Part shown: piece by piece, positions 30,901-33,900 of the stretch
Numbering within the stretch: position 1 is the first letter of the stretch
Layout: every line of letters starts with the position of its first letter
NCBI GenBank assembly: GCA_003252295.1
Contig: QKEV01000003.1
Location: forward strand, 128,701-192,700
Direction: 5' to 3'
Source of the DNA: a bacterium
GTDB taxonomy: Bacteria; Patescibacteriota; Minisyncoccia; Phycocordibacterales; UBA12088
Length of the DNA: 64,000 bases
Position numbers and translations under genes: made by a program
The notes under the pieces: model-generated
What the model saw: only the letters and a program-made list of their open reading frames with translations
The model's database searches: none
Told to the model about the DNA's origin: nothing

Positions 30901-33900
30901 GTATGAGATAAACTGGTCTACTGACTATACTTTCATAACTGGTATAACATCACGAGTTTCAGATACTGATACTGGCTTTCAAAATATTACTAATGGTGTA
31001 GACACTTCACCGTTTACCTCAGGAGATGATATACGCTTTACTGTACAGGGAAGTGATGCACTTACAAATGGCAGTACATACTGGTGGCGTGTTCGTGCTA
31101 AGGATCCAAGTGGTGGTGATACATGGAGTGACTGGTCAGAGAAGTGGAGTTTTACGGTGGATACGAGTGTTGTTGCTTCGACCTGGTTCCAGACGACCAA
31201 TGAGCAGTTTGATACTGATGGTCTCTTTGGTATCACGACACTTGGTGGTAATGCAGAGGTTGCGACTTCGGTTACCGATGTACTTGTAGCCTACGGTCAA
31301 GCAGGTTCTAATGCCCCAAAGTATCGTTTCTGGGATGGCAGCAGTTGGGGTAATGAGTATTCAGCACTAGATGTTGGTGCTGTGCCGTACTGGGTAGTCA
31401 CACACGCACATCCGAGCGCTGAGATGTATGCACTTGCTACCATTGGTCTTGATGCAGACGTAAATGTACAGTTGTACGAGGATGGGTCTTGGGGTTCATT
31501 ACAGGAAATGACCACTACCATTTCAAATACGAATGCACGTGGTGTTGATATAGCATTCGAGCAATCTTCTGGTGACCTTATGGTTGCTTACTGTGACGGT
31601 GATGCTGATCCTTCGTATCGTGTCTACAATGAGTCAACTGGCTGGGGTACGGTTGGTGCCATTAACCTCTCAAGTACCAATAACTGTGAATGGATACAGC
31701 TTGCAGCCGATCCTGTAAGCGATGAGATTATTGTGGTATCTCTTGATTCAACCGGTTCACAGTACGAGGCACAGGTGTGGAATGGAACAGCATGGGGAAA
31801 TGCAACCATAATGGGTTCTATGCTCACCTCAGGTCATGAAGGTATTGCCGTTGAGTATGAGGAGTCAGGAGATCAGGCGATTGTTGCTGTTTCTGATGGA
31901 AATGGTAACAGGATACGATACAACACATGGAATGGAACGACATGGGGTACTGTAAGCACAGAAGCATTAGGAGATAACTATGAGTGGGGTACCTTTGCTC
32001 GGGATGATGGTACTGACGCAATGACACTCTGCTACGTTGATTTTGATACGGACATTGGCGCACTCTTTTGGACAGGAAGTGCCTGGGTTGCTTACACTGA
32101 ACGAGAAACAGTCGGTAGTACCAATAGTGCTCGACCTGTTGCTTGCCAGTATGAAACTGAAGGGGTACGTGATGGTTACCTCATGATGTCATACAGTGAT
32201 GACACAAACGCTCGCTACCAAGCATACAATGGTGCGACGTGGAGCACTGAAGCGAGTATTTCAACGATTACCGACTCGGCACCAGTACAGTCGGTTCGAA
32301 GTGATGATGGTCTTATTCTCTCCATGTTCTTTGATGGCACAAATGGTCGATATGACTTCTCGTACTGGAATGGTAGTAGCTGGTCAACCGCTGAGACACT
32401 TGAGAGTTCACCGTCAGTTACAGGTGCACCATACAAAGAACCATTCATGATGGCACCGAGAAATAGTGCTGTTGAGGGTACCATGTACTCATCTGCTATT
32501 AATTACAGTGATGGTACCGGACCTCAATGGGATCTGGTGTCTTGGAACGATTCAGAACCTGGTGCAAGTACGCTCATATACCAGGTACAGTACTATGATG
32601 ATTCCACATCAAACTGGCTCTTGGTGCCTGATAGTGCTCTTCTCGGTAACTCAGTTGGTACGAGTACTTCGCCTATCGATATTTCAAACTTGAGCACGGT
32701 AACATACAGTCAGATACGTATCAAAGCATCATTTACTTGTGACTCAGGTAGCTGTCCTTCACTCTATGATTGGACGGTGACCTGGTCAGAAGGTTTTACG
32801 GTGAGTGGTATAGCACGTGAGTATGACCAAACAACTGCGGTCACTGCAGGAAGTATTGCTATTGCAGTAAATGGCAGTTTGCAGGTGGGTAAAACAGGTA
32901 CTGTTTCTGGAGGTGTTTGGACGATTAGTAATGTGACAGCGTTTGAAGATGATGTCATTACTGTATGGATCGATGGTGCCGCTGAAGCAAATGAGGCAGT
33001 TGGTGTAACACGGTACGATGGACTTGGTCCGATAACCGGTATGACACTCTATGAGCGTCACCTTGCAATTGGTTCTGATGATCATCCAACCATATCAAAT
33101 ACTGACCTCGCATACTTTGACTACTCGGTGTCTGGGGATGAAGATATTTTACACGACGTCGATATAAATAACGACCTCTATGTTTGTGCAACCGGTCAGG
33201 CAACCTGTGGTAATGAACAGCTCTGGGTACAAGACGGTTCAGTGTTTGAACCGGCAACGAGCACCTCAGAGTTTGTGTACACACACGATGTAGATATTGA
33301 AGGAACCATAGAAGGAGATAGTAATACTTTTGAAGTTTCAGGTTCGTGGACCAATGAGGGTATTTTCAATGCAGATGGTTCTTCGGTTGTGTTTGATGCA
33401 ACGAGTACGAGCGAGAGTATTGATAGTTCATCTGCTACAACGAGCTCGTTCTACGACGTTACCTTTGGTCAAGGTGCATCAACTGCAACATGGTCACTAT
33501 CCTCTCCACTTGATGTAAATGGTTCACTCACACTTGCTTCTGGAACATTTGCTCCTGGTGCAGGGTACACAATCTCTGTAGCAGAGGATCTCACAGTAGA
33601 GAGTGCAGGAGTCTTTACCAAAAATACTGGAACAACAACACTCGATGGTACTTTGCAGAGCTATTGGACTGACAGCAGTGCGACACTGCAGGATATGGGT
33701 ACTGTAGTGGTGGATGGTACGAGCAAGACAGTGAGTTTGGGGTCTGACGTACGTGCAACTACGGTAGTTATTGGTGCTGATGATATTCTTGCGCTTGGCG
33801 GTAATACACTTGAACTCACGGGAAGTTTTGATAATAATGGTTCACTTGTGCCACAACTTGGAGAGGTGCTCTTCATTGGAACTACAGTAGGTAACACGGT

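Follow-up and report, generated by a model that had tools for sequence, protein, structure and literature searches.

An eight-bladed beta-propeller nested in a giant predicted surface protein of a Patescibacteriota bacterium

What kind of domain is formed by the repeats in the middle of a giant protein of a patescibacterium, and what might it bind? The protein is encoded by an open reading frame (ORF) lying in a stretch of 64,000 nucleotides, hereafter the window (contig QKEV01000003.1 of assembly GCA_003252295.1, positions 128,701 to 192,700 of the forward strand; Patescibacteriota, Minisyncoccia, Phycocordibacterales, UBA12088). An earlier reading of the bare sequence, hereafter the original prediction, had placed at window positions 31283-32405 a seven-bladed propeller akin to the lectins RSL, AAL and PLL, expected to bind fucose or methylated sugars. 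The region is a beta-propeller with eight blades, built as four tandem units of two blades and nested within another domain, and its nearest solved structures are lectins. The family to which it belongs is new and unannotated, within a known fold, and its functional kind is probably a known one.

Eight blades in four two-blade units

The hairpin that ends each repeat was searched for in the giant ORF with a strict regular expression, [WYF][DNET][GES]x2-3W. It matches seven times within residues 2137-2511 (375 residues) and only three times in the remaining 5,508 residues of the protein; in 20,000 shuffles of the same 375 residues the maximum was four matches, and 75% of the shuffles had none. 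An eighth unit, LYEDGSWGS at residues 2200-2208, is degenerate and in register with the others; this unit, the second in order, is the one that the original prediction overlooked. The Trp residues of the hairpins fall at residues 2158, 2206, 2257, 2307, 2357, 2404, 2456, and 2503, with a period of ~49 residues. A hidden Markov model (HMM) of the blade, built solely from other members of the family, gives eight tandem matches on the giant protein, at residues 2132-2505, and nothing significant elsewhere in it. The repeats announced at this place are thus real, in frame, and far above what chance would give, and the count of seven is one short.

The fold was modeled with AlphaFold2, from an alignment of 29 homologues. 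The model has a mean predicted local distance difference test score (pLDDT) of 89.9 and a predicted template modelling score (pTM) of 0.90; it is made almost entirely of beta-strands and it is a propeller, as had been claimed, and not another kind of structure. Its strands (30 of at least three residues, plus some short ones) fall into eight groups of four. In the first group, the N-terminal part of the domain supplies just three strands. The strand order suggests that the strand EPFMM, near the C-terminus of the domain, is the inner strand of blade 1, and this order, together with the pTM, is consistent with a closed ring. Because this strand lies beyond position 32405, the domain runs slightly past the end first assigned to it; the place was right, and the domain is slightly larger than was thought (Table 1). 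A domain HMM matches residues 2127-2537 (E = 2e-148), and the domain is present in a single copy in the whole window.

The blades are not all alike. Conservation over 141 near-full-length instances of the domain reveals two alternating types, with the consensus R.FD.AYE..SG.a..Vy...YR.WnG..W for odd blades and W..la..P.sdEi.l...d...d..a..WnGs.Wgn for even ones. When family-level profiles of the blades are compared all against all with hhalign, pairs of the same parity have a mean score of 60 and pairs of opposite parity a mean of 28, with a complete separation between the two sets (Mann-Whitney p = 5e-6). Hence, the propeller consists of four tandem two-blade units, odd and even, that is, (AB)x4. 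The strand order of the model, the blade HMM, and the comparison of blade profiles agree on eight blades, against the seven originally proposed.

The propeller is itself lodged inside another domain. The same ORF contains an uninterrupted module, hereafter the host module, of which residues 2-36 match residues 2096-2130 of the giant protein and residues 44-145 match residues 2535-2637 (BLASTP), that is, the two flanks of the propeller. In the sequence, the second copy of this module is split at a loop by a propeller of ~400 residues, so that one domain is nested in the other. In the closest relatives from the Candidate Phyla Radiation (CPR; loci L001-L004, L007, and L008), the giant ORFs keep this arrangement. 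The AlphaFold2 model of the host module is a beta-sandwich of moderate confidence (pLDDT 69), and all its Foldseek matches have E > 0.02 (the Kex2/furin P-domain, PirA, the CPE C-terminal domain, and CBM28). On this model the host module may be a jelly-roll-like sandwich, the matches to jelly-rolls being weak.

Table 1. Coordinates of the propeller, its repeat units, and the host modules in the giant ORF (residues of the ORF; nucleotide positions of the window)
Feature	Residues	Window positions	Strand	Basis
Giant ORF, 5,883 residues	1-5883	24875..42526	+	Translation; carries the propeller region in frame
Uninterrupted paralogous host module, 147 residues	1827-1973	30353..30793	+	Reference copy showing the insertion
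N-terminal piece of split host module	2095-2130	31157..31264	+	BLASTP to uninterrupted copy, E 5e-10
Eight-bladed beta-propeller domain	2131-2534	31265..32476	+	AlphaFold2 model; domain HMM; limits of the insertion
Repeat unit 1, odd type, partial (strands B and C and hairpin FWDGSSWG)	2130-2159	31262..31351	+	Blade HMM, independent E-value (iE) 7e-7
Repeat unit 2, even type, degenerate hairpin LYEDGSWGS	2160-2208	31352..31498	+	Blade HMM weak, iE 0.12; AlphaFold2 model
Repeat unit 3, odd type, R..D.AFE..SGD...YRVYNESTGWG	2209-2258	31499..31648	+	Blade HMM, iE 5e-13
Repeat unit 4, even type, EWIQLAADPVSDEI...VWNGTAWG	2259-2308	31649..31798	+	Blade HMM, iE 2e-16
Repeat unit 5, odd type, IAVEYEESGD...RYNTWNGTTWG	2309-2358	31799..31948	+	Blade HMM, iE 2e-11
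Repeat unit 6, even type, EWGTFARDDGTD...LFWTGSAWV	2359-2405	31949..32089	+	Blade HMM, iE 9e-7
Repeat unit 7, odd type, RPVACQYETEG...RYQAYNGATWS	2406-2457	32090..32245	+	Blade HMM, iE 1e-8
Repeat unit 8, even type, ...FSYWNGSSWS	2458-2504	32246..32386	+	Blade HMM, iE 7e-6
C-terminal strand EPFMM	2524-2528	32444..32458	+	DSSP strand 404-408 of the model, pLDDT ~89
C-terminal piece of split host module	2535-2640	32477..32794	+	BLASTP to uninterrupted copy, 44% identity, E 3e-22

A family on giant and pilin-like proteins

The family is large. When 1.84 billion cluster representatives are searched with the family profile, one recovers 6,554 proteins at E <= 1e-3, of which the weakest matches may cover only a pilin-like N-terminus, 2,994 at E <= 1e-10, and 1,793 at E <= 1e-30. 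Three kinds of member occur. Some are giant proteins that contain as many as five propellers (two to five in many of them), others, of ~430 residues, contain just a signal peptide and a propeller, and a third kind, of ~550-600 residues, has a pilin-like N-terminus (GFSxxE). The propeller is thus used on pilin-like proteins as well as on other giant surface proteins. The class III signal motif GFS(V/L/I)xE is found in the homologues P0019, P0021, P0024, P0025, and P0053, and the N-terminus of the family profile weakly matches MshA, PilA, and geopilin (E 0.09-0.8). The protein of the window has a plain hydrophobic anchor at its N-terminus and is not a pilin, these features being confined to the short homologues. 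Other domains that co-occur with the propeller in the family are FN3-like, VWA, cadherin, Ig-like, and DUF2341 domains, none of which is an enzyme.

The genomic context of some of the short members also involves pili. P0021 (L011 8001-9746) and P0019 (L014 3417-5216) are encoded in conserved operons with, in this order, an MshEN/T2SSE ATPase, the platform protein T2SSF, an N_methyl pilin, the propeller protein, and two or three small ORFs, and P0002 comes after an N_methyl gene. Judging from their gene content, the operons of P0021 and P0019 look like those of a type IV filament carrying the propeller on its tip or on a minor pilin.

The closest relatives of the propeller domain, found in a single-sequence scan of the genome collection, are 43-64% identical to it, and most lie within giant ORFs. 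The metagenome-assembled genomes that encode them are labeled Paceibacterota, Saccharibacteria, Parcubacteria, and Patescibacteria, with the addition of two Verrucomicrobiota and one Acidimicrobiales. Judged by these relatives, the DNA of the window probably belongs to a CPR bacterium. A comparable arrangement has been described in TM7x (Nanosynbacter lyticus), where host binding requires PilX2, a minor pilin with a PLL-like propeller, and is inhibited by rhamnose (PMC11623550). PilX2 is, like the short members of the family, a type IV pilin-like protein with a propeller head, and it comes from a CPR bacterium; unlike the propeller of the window, its propeller is by description seven-bladed with RCC1 repeats, and it sits on a pilin and not in a giant membrane-anchored protein. 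Another propeller serving as a pilus-associated adhesin is the C-terminal domain of PilY1/PilC, a modified seven-bladed, calcium-binding propeller associated with type IV pili. The query has no Pfam match to PilC/PilY1, and these proteins are not among its top 50 structural matches in Foldseek.

A few neighborhoods are of a different nature. P0007 (L015 6001-7707) is followed immediately by two gene fragments of alpha-L-fucosidase (PF01120; 7916-9786) and has a GH15-like gene before it; an isolated case that may be a coincidence, it is not used as evidence here. P0011 (L017 7001-8944) lies among genes for KaiC/GvpD-like ATPase, DUF7504, and DUF8150, an archaeal-looking context, and the family may therefore reach into archaea. 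The gene neighborhoods of P0006 and P0011 show no consistent theme. Two homologues have a "faint" precomputed match to PF26696 ("PTL_trimer"), which was not accepted as a family assignment.

Lectin neighbors and candidate ligands

In a Foldseek search of the PDB, the top 22 chains are all lectins of the PLL family (PHL, PLL, and PLL2-5), with E-values from 1e-11 to 8e-10, template modelling (TM) scores of 0.54-0.59 relative to the query (TMq) and 0.64-0.69 relative to the target (TMt), and identities of 12-15%. Foldseek aligns these structures with the query over ~366-372 of 415 columns (TMq 0.57, TMt 0.68). The next ranks are taken by AOL/AFL/FleA, BP39L, AofleA, SapL1, and RSL. At the level of the fold, the claim of a lectin-like propeller is therefore borne out, the nearest PDB structures being PLL/PHL, then the AAL-type lectins and RSL. 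The highest TMq in the list, 0.60, belongs to cytochrome cd1, an eight-bladed propeller, which agrees with the number of blades found here.

Both lectin families share elements of architecture with the propeller. The PLL family ("PropLec7A", DUF346 repeats) has four-stranded blades of ~47-50 residues with a W-motif, as here, but its members have seven blades, follow a different repeat consensus (GRLEVFARGTDNALWHIWQ...GWSNW), and are free soluble oligomeric lectins, whereas the query has eight blades within a giant protein. The fucose lectins RSL, BambL, AAL, and AFL ("PropLec6A", Pfam Fungal_lectin) are built, like the query, from a two-blade unit, which is the RSL monomer taken three times in one case and the (AB) unit taken four times in the other. 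They differ in having six blades (2 x 3 or 6 in tandem) instead of eight, and their TM scores to the query in Foldseek are lower (0.37-0.47).

By analogy with these lectins, we favor the view that the propeller is a multivalent adhesive head, probably one that binds glycans, although we give this view somewhat less than an even chance. It would be the binding head of a giant membrane-anchored adhesin, in which each blade would expose a Trp/Tyr-x4-Trp hairpin, with the conserved Tyr-Glu turns of the family lying on that face too, an arrangement expected from general propeller topology. Hairpins and turns would together form several shallow aromatic pockets, comparable to those of RSL/AAL and PLL-type lectins, and the sugars bound in them would be those on the surface of a partner or host cell. 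This view is favored because the propeller is an exposed head on pilus-associated and giant proteins, because its structural relatives are lectins, and because the aromatic hairpin has been kept. The second Trp of the hairpin is present in 8/8 blades, and the first aromatic residue is Trp in blades 1, 4, 5, 6, and 8 and Tyr in blades 2, 3, and 7. In the W-[DN]-G-x-x-W hairpin the two Trp residues have the same i/i+5 spacing as W31/W36 and W76/W81 of RSL, with i/i+6 in blade 3. We infer that the propeller would bind a ligand, that the ligand would be a glycan, and that the Trp hairpins would be the sites.

A number of results weigh against a glycan-binding head, among them those from sequence searches. 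In the propeller, Pfam (E <= 10) returns only a sub-threshold DUF2510 and no lectin family, and NCBIfam (E <= 1) returns nothing. No PDB sequence matches the propeller, either by phmmer with the query or by hmmsearch with the family profile, the matches of the profile being confined to the pilin-like N-terminal region contributed by the short homologues. In particular, neither Pfam Fungal_lectin nor these PDB searches link the propeller to the RSL/AAL family; as a control, the RSL sequence retrieves BambL, SapL1, AAL, AFL, and AOL at E-values from 1e-43 to 1e-11 (AAL and AFL at ~1e-11 to 1e-12). Comparison of the family with PHL, PLL2, PLL4, and PLL5 in hhalign gives a probability of 0.3% and E = 0.2; the sequences of these four proteins were rebuilt from HMMER alignments, with a numbering that reproduces every residue named in PMC5584973. 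Between single blades, the family profile weakly resembles an RSL blade (E = 1e-3, probability 21%), with an alignment that spans strands B and C and the WDGxxW hairpin, and it does not resemble a PLL blade (E = 0.39). Hence, the kinship to RSL/AAL/PLL that had been read from the repeat motif is not detectable in sequence by Pfam, NCBIfam, PDB searches, or hhalign.

The structural similarity also extends beyond lectins. Foldseek gives >800 propeller matches in the PDB at E <= 1e-3, the Kelch and eIF propellers being only two to three orders of magnitude weaker in E-value than the lectins, and generic phage and giant-virus propellers reach E ~1e-10 in BFVD, so that such E-values are not specific. 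Since unrelated propellers score near the lectins, the lectins are the best matches and not exclusive ones. Other propeller families, namely BNR/sialidase, PQQ, FG-GAP, Kelch, WD40, and tectonin, were considered and rejected for want of a Pfam profile match.

The residues of known sugar sites tell against the favored view as well. In RSL, fucose is contacted by Arg17, Glu28, Ala40, Trp76 (stacking), and Trp81 (a hydrogen bond, with support of Trp76) (PMC3466270); the two Trp residues belong to the hairpin W-D-G-x-G-W. Strand B of the eight blades (DVLVAY, EMYALATI, DLMVAYC, DEIIVVSL, DQAIVAVS, DAMTLCYV, DGYLMMSYS, and DGLILSMFF) has no Arg or Lys, and thus no equivalent of Arg17. The position equivalent to Glu28, three residues before the Trp (W-3), is occupied by Y, V, Y, A, Y, A, Y, and F in blades 1-8, and Glu is not among the top residues at W-3 in the 141 family domains. 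The Arg in the motif of the original prediction (YR.WNG) belongs to strand C and aligns with Arg29 of RSL, not with the sugar-binding Arg17. In PHL, the polar site consists of Arg91, Glu93, and Trp107, with Gln, Ser, and Trp of the next blade, and the hydrophobic site of Thr99, Trp104, and Trp118 (PMC5584973). In the one hhalign alignment that is topologically consistent, a statistically weak one, W104, W107, and W115 of PHL correspond to Y128, W/Y131, and W137 (domain numbering), aromatic residues of strand C and of the C-D hairpin, and R91, E93, T99, and W118 correspond to D, M, D, and V of the query, so that the aromatic residues are retained in part and the polar ones are not. Of the Arg/Glu/Trp triad, the Trp-x4-Trp hairpin has been kept, whereas the Arg and the Glu are missing. 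Because these partners are missing, a specificity for fucose or methylated sugars is not transferable from the known sites, RSL-like fucose binding is not expected from the sequence, and the specificity first proposed should not be propagated.

The family has conserved polar residues of its own, R102, Y108/E109, Y208/E209, and E307 (domain numbering), which flank the innermost strand A. Lying near strand A, they could form a single site in the central channel or structural salt bridges, and the conserved pair of Trp residues might do no more than pack the blades against each other; either case would again speak against sugar pockets at the hairpins.

The central position of these residues brings in the main alternative, an adhesion propeller that is not a lectin and that binds a protein, another non-glycan ligand, or a metal at its central face. 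Ligands dock at this face in the C-terminal domain of PilY1, in integrin alpha, and in many propellers of the WD40/Kelch type. The strongest conservation outside the hairpins (R102, Y108/E109, S112/G113, and Y208/E209) flanks strand A, which general propeller topology places near the central axis, as such a function would have it, and the loss of the Arg and Glu that bind sugars in lectins fits as well. Asp, Asn, and Gly abound in the loops between strands B and C (DGDAD, DGNGN, and DFDTD), a composition compatible with metal binding. Pilus operons would suit any tip adhesin, and the VWA, cadherin, and FN3 partners are typical of adhesins that bind proteins. The nearest solved structures, however, are lectins and not PilY1, integrin, or WD40 propellers, no Pfam match to the PilY1/PilC, FG-GAP, WD40, or Kelch models was obtained, and every blade has an exposed W-x4-W hairpin, the feature by which the sugar platform of RSL/AAL is recognized. 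We regard a non-lectin adhesin as possible but rather doubtful.

Alternatively, the propeller might have no ligand at all and be a spacer or rigid hub, adding bulk or geometry to a protein that is, after all, a string of repeated modules without recognized function; its conserved residues, mostly aromatic or Gly positions of the core, would be compatible with this. One would not expect, in such a case, to find it as the whole C-terminal head of secreted or pilin-like proteins of ~430-600 residues that have no other candidate functional part, nor to see its nested insertion kept across relatives of only 43-64% identity, and a purely structural role seems unlikely. An enzyme, be it a glycoside hydrolase, a sialidase-like protein, or a cofactor-dependent eight-bladed oxidoreductase with a catalytic Glu/Arg in the channel, is less probable still and has very little in its favor: Foldseek lists the glycoside hydrolase (GH) propeller BT3686, the NanB/NanC sialidases, and cytochrome cd1 (TMq 0.60), and a Glu is conserved after strand A in odd blades, but the lectin matches score better, no BNR, sialidase, GH, or PQQ family is matched in Pfam or NCBIfam at permissive E-values, and the conserved residues follow a four-fold pseudo-symmetry, unlike a single asymmetric active site. 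The original prediction taken literally, a seven-bladed member of RSL/AAL/PLL binding fucose or O-methylated sugars through the triad, has the lectin neighbors and the common WDGxxW-type hairpin on its side and is contradicted by the eight blades, by the lack of a family-level sequence match, and by the absence of the Arg and Glu in query and family alike, which leaves it next to no probability.

A glycan-binding head thus remains the preferred interpretation, and it has a wider version. The classes of propeller lectins described to date are five-, six-, or seven-bladed (PMC11186620), and a literature search on eight-bladed propeller lectins found no relevant report among the papers listed. 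One may speculate, with considerable reserve, that the family is a new class of (AB)x4 propeller lectins ("PropLec8") placed on pilus tips and giant adhesins, recognizing glycans of a host or partner, carried by CPR, by many other bacteria, and perhaps by DPANN-like archaea, and using a sugar chemistry, Trp hairpins with Tyr-Glu turns, unlike that of RSL/AAL and PLL. If true, an eight-bladed lectin family made of two-blade units, with thousands of unannotated members, would be a new class. The propeller would then also be a testable candidate for host recognition by ultra-small episymbiotic bacteria, a process for which experimental data concern the pilins of TM7x only (PMC11623550). Neither Pfam nor NCBIfam has a model of the family at present, and genome annotation therefore misses it; with a definition, one could label a module that recurs in giant surface proteins and in pilus-associated ones.

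DUF2510, the only Pfam family to touch the propeller, is a short module whose hairpin, "RYWDG..W", is that of the blades. It matches the hairpin above threshold in P0014 (E 2.7e-8) and below threshold in the query (residues 2147-2163, E 0.0067). Unlike a blade array, it is a single motif of 35 residues, is not a model of a propeller, and covers the hairpin only. From the shared hairpin, DUF2510 may be a single-hairpin relative of the propeller blades.

The giant protein and its surroundings

The translation of the giant ORF starts with a hydrophobic anchor (residues ~22-42); after an acidic stretch of low complexity come many repeated modules of extracellular type. From the sequence, this layout is that of a membrane-anchored giant surface protein. 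Pfam recognizes in it only an Ig_Rha78A_N-like domain and DUF2341. The latter lies near the C-terminus, at residues ~5184-5259 (window ~40420-40650, E 4e-24), and DUF2341 also accompanies the propeller in the family member P0037.

Two further sets of repeats lie on either side of the propeller. Upstream, at residues ~1190-1560 (window ~28440-29560), there are three tandem units of ~120 residues, each with a "P(S/T)GW" element, whose loops are rich in Gly, Ser, and Thr and contain HxH motifs (THNHS, GHTHTY, NTHSHT, DAHTHT, AAHAHS, and EPHTHT). Pfam gives no match in these units, which are reminiscent of phage tail-collar-like or metal-binding repeats. Downstream, at residues ~2640-5000 (window ~32800-40000), there are three repeats of ~750 residues with the recurring segment "W(T/S)GSTL.LNSG...YSQDH.G.DGDLY..G.Y....G.EYWSYATDFDG", which probably form a stalk similar to a beta-helix.

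The proteins encoded around the giant gene in the window are secreted and bear cohesin, dockerin, and Ig domains. Proteins with cohesin and with dockerin domains, together with Ig-like domains, are encoded at 20125-21996, 22989-24473, 58948-60828 (+), and 61520-62260 (-). Their domain content suggests a cohesin-dockerin system of surface assembly around the giant gene. The window contains two more very large ORFs, at 65-7081 (2,338 residues) and 7418-11284 (1,288 residues), for which Pfam gives no match at all; where the second of them lies, GC skew (0.27) and AT skew (0.19) are unusually high.

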